From the IMG/VR virus record IMGVR_UViG_3300026549_000030, positions 177,997 through 241,996 of that record: 64,000 nt of DNA; one strand, 5' to 3'. Every line of letters begins with the position of its first letter. Position 1 is the stretch's first letter. This DNA is from a virus. Lineage: Duplodnaviria; Caudoviricetes. Below the pieces are notes generated by a model. That model was not told the DNA's origin, made no database searches, and saw only the letters and a list, made by a program, of their open reading frames with translations. This document shows, piece by piece, positions 5,165 through 54,857 of this stretch. The position numbers and the translations under genes are program-made.

Positions 5165-6454
5165 ATGACAATTAACGTTTATGACATTGTTAAGACATTG
5201 CTGAAATATGCAATTGCCGGCACTGAGTGGGAAGGACACGTCTACACCGTTGGCGGGTGCGAGCGCGACAGGCTTATGGGTAACGAAATCAAGGATATTG
5301 ATATCGTTGTCGATTTGCCCAACGGCGGTATCATGTTCGCGAAGTGGCTTGAAGAGAAGAAACTCACGAAGGGTTCCGTCGTGGTTTATGAGAACTATGG
5401 TACGGCAATGTTTAAGCTCAACGCAATGCCCGATATCGAAATCGAGGCGGTTCAGACGAGAAAAGAGTGCTATCGTGACATTTCCACGAGAAACCCAGAG
5501 ACGGCGTTCGGAACAATTAAAGACGACTGCACGCGCCGCGATTTCACATACAACGCGATTTATTTCGACATTACAAATGGTGTAACGAGAGACTTTTCAG
5601 GTAACGGAATCAAGGATTTGGAAAATAACATTCTTAGAACTTGCGGAGAACCTGAGATTATCTTTAACGAGGATCCTTTGAGAATCCTTCGTGCCGTAAG
5701 ATTCGCAACGAGATTTGGCTCAGAAATTGACAACAGCGTAATAGATGGGATGAAAAAATTCTCCAATAGGCTCGAAATTATTAGCTTAGAGCGCATTCAG
5801 GACGAATTTTTCAAGATTCTAAGGTCAAAAGGCGCCAAGGAAGGACTTGAGTTAATCAACAGCATTGGGGCGAGAAAATACGTCTTGCCATTTGTTGACG
5901 ACGCCAAAATGGAGAATATTATTTCCGTTGCAGACAGATTCGACAAATATGCATTATTGGAAATGCGCCTTGCAGCTATCCTATGGGATGAAGAACTTGC
6001 GAAGAAATCGCTTCTTTACTTGAAATGTTCTAATGAGCTTATCAAGAAAGTTTGCAATATTATTTACATTTCGAAGAAGATAGCCGAACTTAAGGATATG
6101 AATATCTACTCAACGGGTGAGGCTTACGACTACAGGAAGATTCAATGCAAACATGACGAGATTACTGTTTGCCAGAGTGCTACTATACTAACATACGTCA
6201 AGGGAACTCATGAATACTGTTCTCACTTTTACAACATTGCATGTGAAATGAAGAGGAACGGTACCGAAACATACGGATACAAACTTCCTATTGACGGAGA
6301 GGACGTAATGAGGGAAAGGAATATTCCCGCAGGTCCGGATGTTAAGTATTGGCTTGGAGAAGCAATGAAATATGCTTATATGAATCCTAAGATTACAAGG
6401 GACGAACTTCTTAGGATCGTTAGGGAAGGTTTAGTGTCTAGCATTAAAGGATAA
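5165..6454 (+). CDS. cca: CCA-adding tRNA nucleotidyltransferase
   Basis: VGGCERD, KDIDIVV, RRDFTYNA, EDPLRILRAVRF and ERIQDEF class II NTase motifs. Confidence 0.9.
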   Translation: MTINVYDIVKTLLKYAIAGTEWEGHVYTVGGCERDRLMGNEIKDIDIVVDLPNGGIMFAKWLEEKKLTKGSVVVYENYGTAMFKLNAMPDIEIEAVQTRKECYRDISTRNPETAFGTIKDDCTRRDFTYNAIYFDITNGVTRDFSGNGIKDLENNILRTCGEPEIIFNEDPLRILRAVRFATRFGSEIDNSVIDGMKKFSNRLEIISLERIQDEFFKILRSKGAKEGLELINSIGARKYVLPFVDDAKMENIISVADRFDKYALLEMRLAAILWDEELAKKSLLYLKCSNELIKKVCNIIYISKKIAELKDMNIYSTGEAYDYRKIQCKHDEITVCQSATILTYVKGTHEYCSHFYNIACEMKRNGTETYGYKLPIDGEDVMRERNIPAGPDVKYWLGEAMKYAYMNPKITRDELLRIVREGLVSSIKG

Positions 6455-6509
6455 ACGAGGTACATATTTTTATGGATTTAATGGAGTTTTTGCTATCATA
6501 AAAGTATTT

Positions 6510-26718: not shown

Positions 26719-27132
26719 ATGAACGTTTTTCAGTATTCTTCAGTAGTTGAGCAAAATTGGAAAGCCAATCTCGGAGATATGACGGATTGGAAACCGAGTT
26801 ACACTTTCTATAGCGATTTTGCTATAGCCGAGTTCTGCCAAGTTTGGCTGCGTGAGAATAACGCAGTCAAAAAAACCTACAACCAAGTTATCAAATCTTG
26901 GGGGAGCAACTACAAGGCTTTGACGGAAATCGTTATGGTGCTTAACCACAAATCGTGGGCATTTGCCAAGCCAAACCGAGTGGACGCAAAGTACCTCAAT
27001 GTCGGGGATTCGTGGGCGGACTATTTCGTAGAACTCTATAGCGAACTCTATAAGAAAGCGGACGCGCTTTACCGAAAGAAGTTTGCAAAGAACGAAACCG
27101 CTATGAGTTACTACTTTGATGTAACTGATTAG
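26719..27132 (+). CDS. Hypothetical early protein
   Basis: Promoter-gene-terminator cassette. Confidence 0.75.
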   Translation: MNVFQYSSVVEQNWKANLGDMTDWKPSYTFYSDFAIAEFCQVWLRENNAVKKTYNQVIKSWGSNYKALTEIVMVLNHKSWAFAKPNRVDAKYLNVGDSWADYFVELYSELYKKADALYRKKFAKNETAMSYYFDVTD

Positions 27133-45810: not shown

Positions 45811-46668
45811 ATGGAAACCAACAAGACTACCAAAAAGGACATTTATCAGATTGACCCGCGCAACATCGTCGTGCAGGAAGGCTTCAACTCCCGTGTCGAT
45901 TTCGGCGACATTGACGAGCTTGCCTCCCAGATTCGTGAACAGGGCGTTCTGAACCCTATCACCGTCATTCCTTTCACCACGGAAGATGGAGCCGAGAAAT
46001 ATCGCCTTGTGGATGGAGAGCGCCGCTACCGCGCAACTATGAAACTCATTGAAAGCGGATTCGAGATCCCGCGCATCCCCGCGCTCTTCCAGCCCAAGTC
46101 AACTTCCAAGGAGGATATGTTCATTCAGCAGCTTATGCGAAACGAGGGCAAGCCTTTCTCCGAGTACGAGTACGGTATCGCGTTCCAGAAGTTCCAGAAG
46201 TTCGGCTACAGCAACGCAGACATTGCCAAGAAGCTCGGCGTCAAGCAGTGGAAGGTTGACTGCTTCCTTGCCCACCTCAACCGTGACGAGAAGGTGCAGG
46301 AGCTTATGAAGGACGGGCGTATCACCGGTGTTGACGTGCGTCATATCTACCAGGCCGCCAAGAACGAGCAGGCAGCCGTCAAGGAAATCCTCAAGCTGGT
46401 TGACAAAGCTGAGGGTAAGGGTGAGAAGAAGGTATCCCTGAAGGACTTGGATATGGATTCCGCCTACAGTGTCGCCAAGGAAACCGCCGCCGTAAAGAAG
46501 GGCCTGGGCATTCTGTTCAACTACATTAAGACATACACCCACAACGGTGCTATCAACCTCGGTATCGGAGTGGACGATGTGTACACCGCAATCACAAAGG
46601 GCGGAAAGAACCTCAAAGAAGTGTTTGAGTCCGCACAGAGAACTGCAATGCAAAAGAAGGCAGAGTAA
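45811..46668 (+). CDS. ParB/Srx-family protein with an HTH
   Basis: IDELASQIREQGVLNPITV...YRLVDGERRYRA; SNADIAKKLGV HTH. Confidence 0.85.
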   Translation: METNKTTKKDIYQIDPRNIVVQEGFNSRVDFGDIDELASQIREQGVLNPITVIPFTTEDGAEKYRLVDGERRYRATMKLIESGFEIPRIPALFQPKSTSKEDMFIQQLMRNEGKPFSEYEYGIAFQKFQKFGYSNADIAKKLGVKQWKVDCFLAHLNRDEKVQELMKDGRITGVDVRHIYQAAKNEQAAVKEILKLVDKAEGKGEKKVSLKDLDMDSAYSVAKETAAVKKGLGILFNYIKTYTHNGAINLGIGVDDVYTAITKGGKNLKEVFESAQRTAMQKKAE

Positions 46669-47056
46669 AAGCTACTGATTAATCAGGAAAAGGAAGGTAT
46701 CACTACAGTGGTGCCTTTTTTTGTTTCCTGAAACTCGAAGTCGGTGAAGCCCTATATTCGTTAAAATACGCCGCACGCTCGCATCTGCAAATAAATCGAC
46801 GGTAAAAAAAAATGAAAATAAATTTTGATATTAAATTTATTTCATCTATCTTTGCATCAAATAAAGCAATATTATGAAAACATTTGAAGTAACACTTTTC
46901 GTATTGGGGCTGCCTTTTTCAAAGGAAAACACAAGGACAGTTGAAATAGAAGCTAATTCGCAGGAAGAAGCTGAACAGAAAGCCCACGATTGGTATGTAT
47001 CCGATGGGTGGGGAGTTTACGATTCCAAAGAAATAACCGAATAAAACAATAGTATT

Positions 47057-48365: not shown

Positions 48366-48710
48366 CCTATTCCACAACCATTGAAATCCTGTACAAAAGT
48401 GCAGGATTTTTTTGTACCCGTACTTGCCGGTGCGACGAAGACAAGTTTATTAAGGAATATAAACCCGCGATCCATGCTGGTATCATCGCCTGCAGACCAG
48501 CGATCCATGCTGGTTGATATATTCGTTAAAATAACGCTTCCTCCCGCACCTGCAAGTATCCTCTCAATAAAGTGTTAAATTCTACACATTAGCCCCTGTT
48601 TTTGCCATTAACAGGTGTTTTTCTACACGTTATAAATTTCCTGAAATAAATTTGCAAATTAGAATTTAATTCACTATCTTTGTACTACAAGCAAGCAATA
48701 CTATGGAACC

Positions 48711-48840
48711 ACCTCAGTAGATAGTCATAGGGTATAAGGGGCTTAAAGGCGTCCCGAAAAGGGCTGGACGATTTAATCGTAATAGGAAGGAGTACACTCC
48801 AACCTACAAAAATCGGACGGGAGAGTAGACTCCAACCTGG
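48711..48840 (+). ncRNA. Candidate structured ncRNA, copy 1
   Basis: Homologous to 50639-50767; follows a TAtcTTTG promoter; no ORF. Confidence 0.6.
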
Positions 48841-48982
48841 TCATAACTCAACAAAAAAATTAAATTTCATTGTCGAATTTATTTGTCCGATCAGTCGTTC
48901 AATAATAAAAAAGTTCATAATTTTGCTTATTAAGGAAAAACGCCTATCTTTGCATTGTTAAACAAGTAAAGCAATACAATAT

Positions 48983-49210
48983 ATGGAAGATATTAAATTT
49001 CTCGACGTGGTTAAGTGGAACCACCCTATGAGCAAGCCTGAGAAGGACGACGTTATGGTAGTAGAGGACACAGACAAGGACGCTATCACCGTACGCCACC
49101 TGCAGGACAATAACATAACAACTGTTTTCGCCCGCGATTTGCGCGTTGTCGGACACTGCACTGCCTATGAGCCAATCGCCGATATCGTCGCCCGCTACGT
49201 GAGCAAATAG
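48983..49210 (+). CDS. Small hypothetical protein
   Basis: After a promoter. Confidence 0.6.
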   Translation: MEDIKFLDVVKWNHPMSKPEKDDVMVVEDTDKDAITVRHLQDNNITTVFARDLRVVGHCTAYEPIADIVARYVSK

Positions 49211-49257
49211 ACTCTTCTGAGTATATATTCCAAATAATATAACATAAATTTTAATAA

Positions 49258-49575
49258 ATGGATAAAAACACATTAATTAATCATATCAAAACAAGACTCC
49301 CAGAAAATCATACAGGAAGATTACATGCACTAATGCTGTTCTTCACAGAAGTAGAACTCGGCTATTCAAATACACCTAACAAATGGGTTAATACTTCAAA
49401 TATCGTGTACTTCAACGGAATCGACGCACTCAATGCCTATGCAAATACCCGGTGCCCCGCAAGCCAACTCGTAGAAGGAGATACACCTGAAGAACTAGCC
49501 GACAATATGATCCAAATGGTTCATAACTTCAACAACGAAGCCTGGCTCGAAACAGAACTCTACCCATATATGTAA
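49258..49575 (+). CDS. Hypothetical protein
   Basis: ORF flanked by ACTC-N4-GAGT motifs. Confidence 0.6.
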   Translation: MDKNTLINHIKTRLPENHTGRLHALMLFFTEVELGYSNTPNKWVNTSNIVYFNGIDALNAYANTRCPASQLVEGDTPEELADNMIQMVHNFNNEAWLETELYPYM

Positions 49576-49965
49576 TAGACTCGATTGAGTATAAATTTTA
49601 AATTTACAATATTATGACAGAACAAGAAATCAAACAGAAGGCAATTGAGATAGTCAAAAGTTACGGCTATCATGAGGGAGAAATAATCGACTACGACTAC
49701 GCCGTAGAAATGGTTGCCGAAGCCCTGTCAAAATAGCTGACTTTCATATTCCATATTGTTTCTTTCCCCACCGTTATTGCCCAATATAAATTTCGGTGGG
49801 ATTTTTTTTAATAAAAACCTGATAATAATAAATTATCTAATATTTTCCTGATAAATTAATTTCAGAGATTGCTCTTTCCCCATAGACTCGTTTGAGTATA
49901 TTTATACCCGAATACTGTATTTTTTTAAAATTATTTGTATATTCATTATAAAATGAATATAATAT

Positions 49966-50538
49966 ATGGAATGGAAAGAACACCCTACAATAGTAGGATA
50001 TTTGGCTAATGAAAATGGAGAAATTGCAAGAATTGATGAAACAAGTTTATTTCCTCTCGACACTTTAAATATCGTAAAACAAACACTAAATTCTAATGGA
50101 TATTTAATGTTTACATGCCATAAAAAATCAAAAATAGCACATAGATTTATTTATGAATGCTTTTACGGGCCAATAGAAAAAGGATTGGTAATAGGCCACA
50201 TTAATTGCAACAGAACTGATAATAGAATCGAAAATTTAAGAAAAGTCACGGCAAAAGAAAATAACTCTAATCCAATAACTGTTAAACGACAATTAGAAAT
50301 AAAGAGAGAAAAAAACGGGAAGAAAGTTTTAAAACGCGATAAAAAAACGGGAGAAATTCTTGGATACTACGAAAGCGTAAGACAAGCCGCAGAAGAAAAC
50401 GGTACTTTGCCTCAATATATCAGATGGGTATGCAACGGTAAAAAAGGATACTATAGCTCCGCAGGATATAAATGGGAATGGGCAAAATATAGATACTCCT
50501 GTAAATGGGGAAAATGGTGGATTAGTGGAGACTTATAA
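49966..50538 (+). CDS. HNH homing endonuclease with a C-terminal NUMOD1-like DNA-binding module
   Basis: AHRFIYECF...IGHINCNRTDNRIENLR; YESVRQAAEE...GYKW. Confidence 0.85.
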   Translation: MEWKEHPTIVGYLANENGEIARIDETSLFPLDTLNIVKQTLNSNGYLMFTCHKKSKIAHRFIYECFYGPIEKGLVIGHINCNRTDNRIENLRKVTAKENNSNPITVKRQLEIKREKNGKKVLKRDKKTGEILGYYESVRQAAEENGTLPQYIRWVCNGKKGYYSSAGYKWEWAKYRYSCKWGKWWISGDL

Positions 50539-50638
50539 AATTTTATCACATTGAAATACAACGTGATTTTTTTTTGCTTTTCTGAAATTTTCTTCCTATC
50601 TTTGTATTGCTGAACAGAAAGACAGTAGCTGTGAAGAA

Positions 50639-50767
50639 ACCTTGGTAAACAGTTATAGGGTATAAGGAATTTAAAGGCATTCCGAAAAGGGCTGGGTGAT
50701 TTTAATCGCATAGGAAGGAGTATACTCCGTCACGATTGATCACGCTGGAGCGTAGACTCCAATCTGG
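50639..50767 (+). ncRNA. Candidate structured ncRNA, copy 2
   Basis: Homologous to 48711-48840; follows a TAtcTTTG promoter; no ORF. Confidence 0.6.
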
Positions 50768-50873
50768 CCTAAAAAAAAATATAACATTTTCGGCAATAAA
50801 TCCGTTTTCCTGCCAATAATGTATAAATTTATATATAAAAAAATCCTCAGTAAAATTTACTGAAGATTCTATG

Positions 50874-50955
50874 TAGCGGGTGAGGGACTCGAACCCCCGA
50901 GGCTTGCGCATAGGCTTATGAGGCCTACAAGATGACCAACTTCTTACAACCCGCA
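50874..50955 (-). tRNA. tRNA with CAU anticodon (Met or Ile2), atypical; no encoded CCA
   Basis: TAGGC-CTCATAA-GCCTA anticodon arm; GGGGG-TTCGAGT-CCCTC T arm; GCGGGT/ACCCGC acceptor stem. Confidence 0.85.
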
Positions 50956-53100: not shown

Positions 53101-53245
53101 CCGGCCAGGTTTCTTTTTCAGTGAACGCCGCATGGCGTTTTCTATGATTAGCATAGGGAACGATATACCTGTTGGCTACCCAACAAGGATTTACTATCTT
53201 GACATTCGTTATTCACTCCTGCCCGTAATCCCGCTTCCCGACGGG
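53101..53245 (-). ncRNA. Putative TnpB omega-RNA/reRNA (scaffold plus about 20-nt guide)
   Basis: Overlaps the tnpB 3' end; terminal hairpin AACGCC-ATGC-GGCGTT followed by CAC, resembling an IS200/IS605 right end at 53121; putative guide TGAAAAAGAAACCTGGCCGG. Confidence 0.55.
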
Positions 53246-54396
53246 ATGTTTGTTATATTTTCTACTTTCAATTCCTTGGCAACCAACGCCTGAGGGTGTA
53301 AACCCATTTTCTTTATGTTGATTGCCGCATTAATGTCCCTGTCATGTTCGGCGCCGCAGTGCGGGCACACCCACTGACGGTCATCTAATTTGAGTTCGTG
53401 GTTTACATAACCACAGTTGGAGCAGGTTTTCGAAGAAGGCTCATACTGCCCAATGAAAACAACATTCTTACCATACATATCAGCCTTGTAAGCAAGTTGC
53501 CTTGTAAATTCGTTCCACGCGGCACTTCGAATACTATTAGCAAGGCGGTGATTTTGTGTCATTCCTGTAATATTCAAGTTCTCAAGGCATACCGTATCGT
53601 AATCCCTAATAATTAAGGTTGATAACTTATGGAGGAAATCGCTTCTCCTGTTCGCTATCTTACGATGCAATTTTGCAATTTGAAGGCGTTTTTTCTCGTG
53701 CCTTTTACTCCCCTTCTGTGTTTTTGCAAATCCCTGTTGAAGTCCTGCAAGTCTTTTTTGCCCTTTTTCAAGGAATTTAGGGTTTCCGTACTTTATTCCA
53801 TTGGAAAGAATTGCATAATCTTTGATACCTAAGTCGATACCTACGGTTGTTTCCTCACATACCTTGGTTTTCGGCATGTTTGGTTTTCCGTCATCAACCA
53901 GTATTGTACACCAATAATCTCCACAATGGTCTTTGCTTACGGTAAGAGTACCCATTCTGAGCGTGGTATCAAAAACCCTATTTTCACAGAACTTTACCCA
54001 CCCTATAGTTGGAACAAACACCCAATTTGTTTCGAAATTAAATTTTGCCCCCTGAGGTAGGCGGAAGGAATCTGTGGAGTTCTTTCTCGATTTAAACTTT
54101 GGATAACCTTTCTTCGCTTTAAAAAAACGAGTAAAGGCATTATCCAAATTCCTAAGTGATTGTTGCAGTGACGCAGCGGAGGACAGTTTTAGCCATTCGT
54201 GTTCACCGTCCTTTTTGAGTTTTGTAAGTTCGCCACAAAGTTGGACACAGGAGATTGATTTCCTTTCTTCCTCCCACACCTTCTTTTTCATGTCAAGCCC
54301 CCAGTTATAAACGAATCGAGCATTGCCGAAGGCTTGGGACAATGACTTGCATTGTTTAACCGTCGGTTTTAATTTGTATTTGTATGCTCTCATCAT
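53209..54396 (-). CDS. tnpB: TnpB/Cas12f-like RNA-guided RuvC nuclease (395 aa), no adjacent TnpA
   Basis: MRAYKYKLKPT HTH start; RuvC motifs GIDLG, CLENL and DRDINAAINI intact; CSNC/CPHC zinc ribbon. The ORF-track extension to 54606 is only the translated repeat array. Confidence 0.92.
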   Translation of the reverse strand: MMRAYKYKLKPTVKQCKSLSQAFGNARFVYNWGLDMKKKVWEEERKSISCVQLCGELTKLKKDGEHEWLKLSSAASLQQSLRNLDNAFTRFFKAKKGYPKFKSRKNSTDSFRLPQGAKFNFETNWVFVPTIGWVKFCENRVFDTTLRMGTLTVSKDHCGDYWCTILVDDGKPNMPKTKVCEETTVGIDLGIKDYAILSNGIKYGNPKFLEKGQKRLAGLQQGFAKTQKGSKRHEKKRLQIAKLHRKIANRRSDFLHKLSTLIIRDYDTVCLENLNITGMTQNHRLANSIRSAAWNEFTRQLAYKADMYGKNVVFIGQYEPSSKTCSNCGYVNHELKLDDRQWVCPHCGAEHDRDINAAINIKKMGLHPQALVAKELKVENITNIPSGSGITGRSE

Positions 54397-54458
54397 TTTA
54401 TAAAAAATCTTTTTTATTATAAATAGTTGCTTGTCTGAAAAAGTTCGAAGGGAATCGG

Positions 54459-54560
54459 GGTGTCGGTTTACTATAAATTCAATGGATTTACAACTTTCCA
54501 TTATATATTCAATTGGTAGTAGCAGGTGTTGGTTCACCACAAATTCAATGGATTTACAAC
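54459..54560. CRISPR. Mini CRISPR array: 36-bp repeat, 30-bp spacer, 36-bp repeat
   Basis: GGTGTCGGTTTACTATAAATTCAATGGATTTACAAC (54459-54494); spacer TTTCCATTATATATTCAATTGGTAGTAGCA; GGTGTTGGTTCACCACAAATTCAATGGATTTACAAC (54525-54560); 32/36 identical. Confidence 0.75.
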
Positions 54561-54857
54561 CTTCTCGTTCTATCTTATTGATTTTCCGAGCAATACACGC
54601 GCACACCGACGCGCAAAATTCCTAAAATTATATTGCATTATGTCATATTTGTTCATTTTTTAGCCAACAGGTATATCATTTCCTTAGCATATATACATTA
54701 TATCTTTCCTCAAAAGGCATGGACGTTTGTAGGAGTTTGTCAACAGTCAGATTCAGTACGTTGTCCAACTTCTCATATTCTTTTTTAGAAAGGATGCCCT
54801 TCGCCTTGGCTTCAAGGCTGTACAGTTTGTTATTTAATATTTCAGGAGAGGGACGCA

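Follow-up and report, generated by a model that had tools for sequence, protein, structure and literature searches.

The CreT RNA of Pseudomonas aeruginosa is a small RNA whose 15-nucleotide (nt) mini open reading frame (mini-ORF) carries two proline (Pro) codons directly before the stop codon (bioRxiv 10.64898/2026.06.02.729485). Its action requires both Pro codons but withstands synonymous codons and a 3-nt deletion of the codon after ATG; the RNA arrests growth and, in vitro, blocks translation, and the hairpin that follows the mini-ORF contributes to RNA stabilisation only (bioRxiv 10.64898/2026.06.02.729485). The CreT RNAs of haloarchaea contain tandem rare arginine (Arg) or isoleucine codons, which sequester one transfer RNA (tRNA) species (PMC8501985). 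We describe here two homologous segments, RNA-A and RNA-B, lying in a 64,000-nt stretch of phage DNA (hereafter the window: positions 177997-241996, the right end of the 242-kb IMG/VR virus record IMGVR_UViG_3300026549_000030, whose completeness is 68% according to CheckV). They belong to a family that joins a mini-ORF with consecutive Pro codons, at the 5' end, to a conserved and folded domain of 125 nt.

The Salmonella mgtA and mgtCBR leaders contain short ORFs (mgtL and mgtP) with consecutive Pro codons, located before competing helices and a terminator; there, the ribosome extends over the switching helices, and the genes under control lie downstream on the same transcript. The bar minigenes of phage lambda are composed of two codons and act through peptidyl-tRNA and the ribosome, without any conserved folded domain. 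Finally, putL and putR of phage HK022 are two homologous two-hairpin RNAs, produced just downstream of early promoters and devoid of mini-ORF, and put RNA acts on the RNA polymerase that made it.

RNA-A, RNA-B and their homologues

RNA-A and RNA-B sit in a block of plus-strand small genes with their own promoters, bounded on one side by a parB-like gene (45811-46668; Pfam ParB_N and HTH_ParB) and on the other by two minus-strand tRNA genes. The two segments are 77-79% identical over ~130 nt when compared by BLAST within the phage record (E 1.7e-20). They are found where the original prediction had placed them, RNA-A being matched at 100% and RNA-B at 77% identity over 130 nt, and all the sequence blocks that it had listed as shared are present in both; the 242-kb record contains no third copy of the unit. 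The predicted promoters are also recovered, each segment lying behind TATCTTTG, with a TTTG 20 nt further upstream. The promoter of RNA-A (48651-48682, plus strand) is composed of a -33 box TTTG (48651-48654), a 20-nt spacer and a -7 box TATCTTTG (48675-48682), and that of RNA-B (50573-50604, plus strand) has the same boxes at 50573-50576 and 50597-50604. Both are of the Bacteroidota type (-33 TTTG, -7 TAnnTTTG), and own -33/-7 boxes are observed at a fixed distance in nearly every homologue, the next gene having again a promoter of its own. Judging from these signals, the best explanation is that both segments are small RNA genes, each transcribed on its own, of a large gut or rumen phage that infects Bacteroidota. 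The predicted RNA measures about 150-190 nt between its start site and the last position of the conserved tail.

The original prediction had not recognised the family of these RNAs, and indeed no family of Rfam 15 matches them at gathering or permissive thresholds: the best sub-threshold score is 13.6 bits at E 8, and only tRNAs exceed the gathering threshold in this search. BLAST against phage and plasmid collections gave no match to the RNA, three exact-pattern scans of IMG/VR gave no copy of it, and a single match obtained by pattern scan among GTDB species genomes (Polaromonas) is due to chance, as the covariance model does not confirm it. One pattern scan of JGI and ENA metagenome contigs, based on the P2 hairpin (see below), yielded 18 loci, and a covariance model, R1, was built from 18 sequences (alignment A3). 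R1 detects 30 copies, including more diverged ones in the same loci, and nine others are found in loci fetched via a neighbouring protein, F4. The family is thus observed as 39 copies, in the window and in 28 metagenome loci, all from animal gut or rumen assemblies, and we are highly confident that it is a real family of RNA genes.

The gene order around these RNAs, as established by tblastn, is conserved and reads DUF932 - small genes - ParB - [RNA1] - F3 - [RNA1'] - F5 - F4 - small ORF(s) - RNA2, where F3, F5 and F4 are proteins of ~167, ~75 and ~105 amino acids (aa), respectively. Nearly all loci contain RNA2, the best-conserved copy, after which come mostly convergent genes, or else unrelated genes or a fresh promoter. 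A second copy is present in about a third of the loci, many relatives having one copy only, and RNA1, where present in related loci, is followed by a new promoter. Two loci, L040 and L034, contain F4 and lack the RNA. At the same place, L040, which has F3-F5-F4, contains two copies of a different short unit (6130-6230 and 6395-6470), made of a promoter-like TTTGG...TTATTTTATGCAAT and a GC-rich stretch; these units may be a non-homologous replacement of the RNA.

The 125-nt domain extends from 48728 to 48852 in RNA-A (covariance-model match of 140 bits, E 5e-42) and from 50656 to 50779 in RNA-B (109.8 bits, E 2.4e-32), on the plus strand in both cases. It is composed of a helix, P2, with a conserved loop UUAAAGGC, an invariant junction GAAAAGGGCUG, a second helix, P3, two near-identical GGAG...CUCC hairpins, H1 and H2, and a tail. 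In RNA-A, P2 pairs 48738-48742 with 48751-48755 around the loop TTAAAGGC, the junction GAAAAGGGCTGG occupies 48756-48767, P3 pairs 48768-48772 with 48776-48780, the GGAG/CTCC hairpins H1 (48789-48800) and H2 (48820-48833) are separated by a variable segment (48801-48819), and the tail follows (48834-48842).

When the 30 sequences of alignment A4 are considered, 99% of the cells of P2, P3, H1 and H2 are paired, as compared to 29-49% in slid controls. Both-sided changes are observed at six pairs, three in P2 and three in P3, and the covariation score reaches 0.163 versus 0.083 in shuffles, none of 500 shuffles attaining the observed value. The claim that the segments specify a structured RNA is thus borne out by covariation across 30 sequences. 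The pairing-preserving difference between the two copies that had first drawn attention to them, ACGAT/ATCGT versus GTGAT/ATCGC, corresponds to P3, and a still stronger compensatory change is observed in P2 (GGGGC/GTCCC versus GGAAT/ATTCC). Furthermore, P2 and P3 contain G-U pairs, which would give C-A mismatches on the opposite strand, so that the fold fits an RNA gene on the plus strand only. Single-sequence folding to the minimum free energy gives z-scores of +0.4 to -1.7, energy alone being therefore uninformative.

These observations bear on the possibility that the repeats act as DNA and not as RNA, either as a recombination or cassette boundary or as a site, bound by ParB or another protein, flanking the small-gene module. 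Two direct repeats do flank a gene module beside a parB-like gene, H1 of RNA-B is a 12-base-pair (bp) palindrome, and the last copy of a 40-bp intergenic motif is located just upstream (48518-48558). Such a role is nevertheless very improbable, as it accounts neither for compensatory changes involving G-U pairs nor for a promoter at a fixed distance in nearly all copies, nor for Pro-Pro codons with triplet periodicity (see below), and as many relatives contain one copy only.

Since neither H1 nor H2 varies, covariation does not distinguish a pair of GGAG/CUCC hairpins from a single long H1:H2 helix; when the single long helix was tried in place of the two hairpins, six of its 10 pairs never varied and 45 of 500 shuffles reached its score. 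In an additional helix, P1, the junction GAAAAGGGCUG can pair with the tail and, in most relatives, also with the following U-run. Its mean energy is -8.4 kcal/mol, versus -4.9 kcal/mol for shuffled tails, and P1 would seal the domain, giving it a terminator-like end. The U-run is found at the end of most copies and is absent from RNA-A and RNA-B of the window. Two other pairings were considered and rejected: a pseudoknot between the P2 loop and the junction, hinted at by L025 alone (in L044b, L046 and L048b the loop is changed and its partner is not), and a pairing of the mini-ORF with the segment before H2, which reaches 7 bp in some copies and is inconsistent across the family.

The segment lying between ACTCC of H1 and GGAG of H2 had been described as a freely variable insert and as a possible guide or sensor loop. 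It does differ between RNA-A and RNA-B, but it is not free across the 30 homologues, in most of which it is complementary to an arm of P3, namely the 3' arm or, in some lineages, the 5' arm. Insert and P3 arm change together: ACGAU, ACGGUUA and CGGUC, for example, are found in the insert as well as in the 5' arm of P3. Inserts paired with their own P3 partners have an energy of -5.68 kcal/mol, as compared to -4.94 kcal/mol for permuted partners, and none of 2000 permutations reaches the former value, a result that we regard as suggestive, since the relatedness of the sequences inflates the permutation test. The folding ensemble is split between alternative pairings of the P3 arms. The insert thus looks like an internal alternative pairing and not like a guide, and a sensor role, that of a switching RNA, may be envisaged.

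The guide hypothesis, under which the RNA would be an omega-RNA or would resemble a clustered regularly interspaced short palindromic repeat (CRISPR) RNA, serving the nearby TnpB or another phage nuclease with the insert or the 3' flank as guide, is prompted by this inner variation within a conserved scaffold and by a TnpB-type ORF located 2.4 kb away (53209-54606, minus strand; Pfam OrfB_IS605 and Cas12f1-like TNB), beside which a 36-30-36 repeat-spacer-repeat unit is found (54459-54564). The longest call of this ORF, 465 aa from a GTG, overruns the repeats. The RNA is, however, on the opposite strand and does not adjoin TnpB, its variable segment is complementary to its own P3 arms, the spacer of the mini-array agrees with the RNA promoters at 17 of 30 positions at best, a chance-level match, and no TnpB homologue is found in any related locus, the RNA being carried there without TnpB or Cas gene. 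A guide function is hence extremely unlikely, and the RNAs probably act on ribosomes, for the reasons developed below.

The Pro-Pro mini-ORF and its possible action on ribosomes

The 5' part of the RNA, which had been taken as non-coding, turns out to hold a conserved mini-ORF. The first 55-60 nt are poorly conserved and have no common fold, the only invariant bases being the four C's of two Pro codons. All 39 copies have, at their 5' end, a mini-ORF of 3-7 codons, beginning ~20-27 nt past the -7 box, and Pro-Pro is encoded in 38 of them. Its form is a start codon (ATG or GTG), 0-2 codons, CCN CCN, 0-2 codons and a stop codon. Once the sequences are anchored on the Pro codons, the four C's have an entropy of 0 bits, as compared to 1.0-1.2 bits for the two wobble bases and 0.4-1.9 bits for the flanking positions. 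Across the family the first Pro codon is CCA, CCG or CCT and the second CCG or CCT, synonymous variation is also observed at Arg (AGA/AGG) and Asp (GAC/GAT), and all three stop codons are used. The start-to-Pro distance is 0, 3 or 6 nt, length changes being multiples of 3. The stop codon directly follows Pro-Pro in 27 of the 39 copies and comes after one or two intervening codons in 11, the products including MPP, MKPP, MRPP, MIPP, MVPP, MRDPP, MRSPP, MRGPP, MEPPQ, MEPPW, VNPPW and VTPPD. While the stop lies 12-23 nt ahead of P2, the first helix, the distance from the Pro codons to P2 is kept at 22-26 nt wherever the stop falls.

In the window, the mini-ORF of RNA-A (48703-48720, plus strand) reads ATG GAA CCA CCT CAG TAG, that is M-E-P-P-Q-stop; its orthologue is identical in the closest relative, L044, and encodes MEPPQQ-stop in L045. 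That of RNA-B (50631-50648, plus strand) is degenerate and reads GTG AAG AAA CCT TGG TAA (M-K-K-P-W-stop), the first Pro codon being lost. RNA-B is the sole copy with one Pro lost, and its orthologues keep Pro-Pro (MEPPW-stop in L044b; VNPPW-stop in L025, L046 and L048b). Five copies have GGAGG six nt before ATG, the others having an A-rich leader of 20-27 nt, except for one nearly leaderless copy; the lack of a Shine-Dalgarno sequence in most copies is expected for Bacteroidota.

The conservation of Pro-Pro is thus of the coding type, and at the level of sequence this signature is that of selection on Pro-Pro itself. We consider it likely that the mini-ORF is functional. In E. coli, W or D placed after Pro-Pro, an arrangement found here in several copies, gives one of the strong stall contexts that depend on elongation factor P (EF-P). 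More generally, the context of a PP motif sets the strength of pausing (PMC8129111).

From these patterns and by analogy with CreT, we infer that the mini-ORF is translated, that it stalls ribosomes and that the host may be affected in consequence. A host ribosome would start on the mini-ORF and stall on Pro-Pro, at or beside the stop codon, so that one ribosome would be held per RNA. The phage could thereby gain an early-expressed means either of slowing or reprogramming translation or of reading its state, i.e. EF-P or termination capacity. The folded 3' domain would protect the RNA and, since P3 has an alternative partner in the variable segment, it may add a switch. CreT-like arrest or sensing of ribosomes is the main mechanism that we propose, and we do so tentatively, as it falls somewhat short of being probable.

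Several points weigh against this proposal. The copies of the window depart from the canonical design, RNA-A having PP-Q-stop and RNA-B a single Pro. The homologues come from related phages, and the counts given above are therefore not independent events. An early translation-arresting RNA would also hit the phage's own protein synthesis, and neither EF-P nor a release factor, a peptidyl-tRNA hydrolase or bS21 was found in the phage record, itself 68% complete. Finally, the 125-nt domain, with its invariant loops, is more strongly conserved than the mini-ORF, whereas the hairpin of CreT only stabilises the RNA. As this conservation goes far beyond what a stabilising hairpin needs, the domain may carry the main function, outside any stalling model. 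This function may be: (i) protein binding, (ii) contact with the ribosome, or (iii) a switch driven by a ligand or a factor.

If the domain carries the main function, the RNA could be a purely trans-acting one, binding a protein, serving as a decoy or regulating by base-pairing, with a mini-ORF that would be incidental or would stabilise the 5' end via a parked ribosome. The long invariant unpaired stretches (loop UUAAAGGC, junction CCGAAAAGGGCUG) and the two identical GGAG/CUCC hairpins are typical of protein or tertiary contacts. RNA-B and copy L007a show one part decaying while the other is kept, and H1 and H2 have a GAGU/ACUC core in common with a hairpin recurring among the early genes in all these phages. 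The arms of this intergenic hairpin do not, however, co-vary with H1/H2, the phage genome shows no enrichment of sequences complementary to the conserved loops, and the neighbouring proteins yielded no RNA-binding lead. The presence of Pro-Pro in 38 of 39 copies with free wobble bases indicates that the mini-ORF is not incidental, and we consider a purely trans-acting RNA to be unlikely.

The same mini-ORF could alternatively belong to a cis-acting leader, be it a leader-peptide attenuator, an orphan riboswitch or a put-like antitermination RNA, that would set read-through past a terminator. All the parts are present: a mini-ORF with stall codons, mutually exclusive pairings in which the 3' arm of P3 engages either the 5' arm or the variable segment, with a split ensemble, and a U-run at the end of most copies; the copies of the window, which lack the U-run, could be read through into F5-F4. 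The Pro-codon leader ORFs mgtP and mgtL of Salmonella provide a precedent. Another one is EF-P-dependent coupling of transcription and translation (PMC5021804). However, the stop codon lies 12-23 nt before P2, which has no alternative partner, and more than 50 nt separate the stop from the switching P3/P4 arms downstream. At this distance, the switching helices are out of reach for a ribosome positioned on the mini-ORF, which weakens an attenuator role. Moreover, no regulated gene is found in the same unit, since mostly convergent genes, unrelated genes or a fresh promoter come after RNA2, and a new promoter after RNA1. A leader function hence appears doubtful.

Besides the proposed CreT-like mechanism, one interesting possibility is that the two halves of the RNA work together, the fold of the 125-nt domain holding or remodelling a ribosome stalled 22-26 nt upstream. 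Such a joint action, which we consider unlikely, would define a new class of phage RNA. The RNA would then be an RNA-only device that shuts off host translation, senses translation capacity or counters defences, and CreT-type mini-ORFs would be the minimal form of a wider mobile strategy, common to phages and hosts.

Neighbouring genes and other features of the region

Three small plus-strand ORFs lie between RNA-A and RNA-B and are syntenic with the RNA in relatives: F5 (75 aa, 48983-49210), F4 (105 aa, 49258-49575) and a 40-aa ORF (49614-49736). F3, F4 and F5 have no Pfam or PHROG family and gave no Atlas lead; the structure model of F4 has a predicted local distance difference test value of 91, with no fold match in PDB. 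Another gene, also on the plus strand (49966-50538), encodes a homing-type endonuclease of the HNH_3 family (Pfam PF13392, E 2e-17). This gene is an insertion outside the conserved module, without syntenic homologue at this place in most relatives. HNH_3 genes are found near RNA2 at varying places and in varying orientations in other loci (L028:5820-6350, L030:7356-7850, L044:4770-5321 and L048:3211-3735), and the surroundings of RNA2 look like a hot spot for their insertion.

The hairpin that punctuates the early genes has a 7-bp stem (NNNACTC-N4-GAGTNNN) and is located just after stop codons or promoters. Plus-strand copies are found in the window at 27131, 28426, 28665, 32867, 35395, 41246, 45494, 49208, 49576 and 49883, the last five of which read TAGACTC-N4-GAGTATA (5 observed versus 0.01 expected). 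Almost every related locus contains several copies of this hairpin, mostly as GGTACTC-GATY-GAGTACC, with loops that begin with G on the sense strand. The hairpin may serve to terminate transcription, to stabilise RNA or as a protein site. The bipartite 40-bp intergenic motif (TATATTCGTTAAAATA...GCA..TGCAA), the last copy of which stands ~90 nt before the promoter of RNA-A, has other copies at 46753 and 47724.

Past RNA-B, the minus-strand tRNA-Met (CAU) gene (50873-50955) has an unusually long variable region, with an Rfam score of only 35.8 bits, and adjoins a normal tRNA-Thr (UGU) gene; L005 has likewise two tRNA genes just past its RNA2. Outside the window, ARAGORN reports a tRNA with anticodon UCA ('SeC' type) on the minus strand (G000 109477-109566), possibly a UGA suppressor. 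There is no evident recoding of TGA or TAG, coverage by ORFs being already 0.83 with the standard code and 0.88 with TGA=W or TAG=Q. The spacer of the mini-array is matched exactly over 16 nt at one other place in the record (G000 ~70832-70847), and nothing matches it at the RNA genes.

Comparison with known systems

Regardless of its function, the family described here is a well-supported new family of structured RNAs, suitable for submission to Rfam. It would also offer a tractable RNA of ~170 nt for studying Pro-Pro-stop arrest in a phylum largely without Shine-Dalgarno initiation. Proline-codon RNA toxins, first reported in 2026, had been regarded as peculiar to the CRISPR loci of P. aeruginosa. 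A mini-ORF of the same logic, conserved in early RNAs of Bacteroidota phages and fused there to a large conserved fold, would show that phages, too, use ribosome-stalling mini-genes.

Among the other small RNAs and leaders considered, the bar minigenes and HK022 put have no similarity of sequence or structure to the phage RNA and gave no Rfam match to it. The mgtL and mgtP leaders resemble it in having a short consecutive-Pro ORF ahead of competing helices and a terminator; the phage mini-ORF, however, ends well before the helices, and no conserved gene lies downstream. The haloarchaeal CreT RNAs have in common with it a mini-ORF that acts, in the proposed mechanism, through the translating ribosome and not through a protein product. 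Unlike them, the phage RNA would not target a single isoacceptor, since its Pro codons vary (CCA, CCG and CCT).

The closest likeness is to CreT of the type I-F CreTA of P. aeruginosa. Both are small promoter-driven RNAs in which a mini-ORF made of a start codon, 0-1 codon, Pro-Pro and a stop precedes a downstream fold. CreT needs two Pro in a row irrespective of codon identity, and the conservation within the phage family follows the same pattern. Both have a stable structure downstream, the phage domain having the covarying helices P2 and P3. The 3' part of the phage RNA is a conserved multi-helix domain of 125 nt, as opposed to the simple GC hairpin of CreT, most phage copies lack a Shine-Dalgarno sequence, and 11 of 39 have one or two codons between Pro-Pro and the stop. 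Moreover, the RNA is phage-borne and comes without a CreA guide or a type I Cas partner: no cas genes are found in the related loci, and the mini-array spacer beside TnpB, considered as a CreA-like repressor, was rejected on account of the same chance-level match to the RNA promoters (at most 17 of 30 positions). With neither a CreA guide nor a Cas effector, the RNA falls outside CreTA, even if its mode of action may be that of CreT. It is a previously undescribed family: a new, phage-borne and structurally elaborated variant of the proline-codon mini-ORF RNAs.

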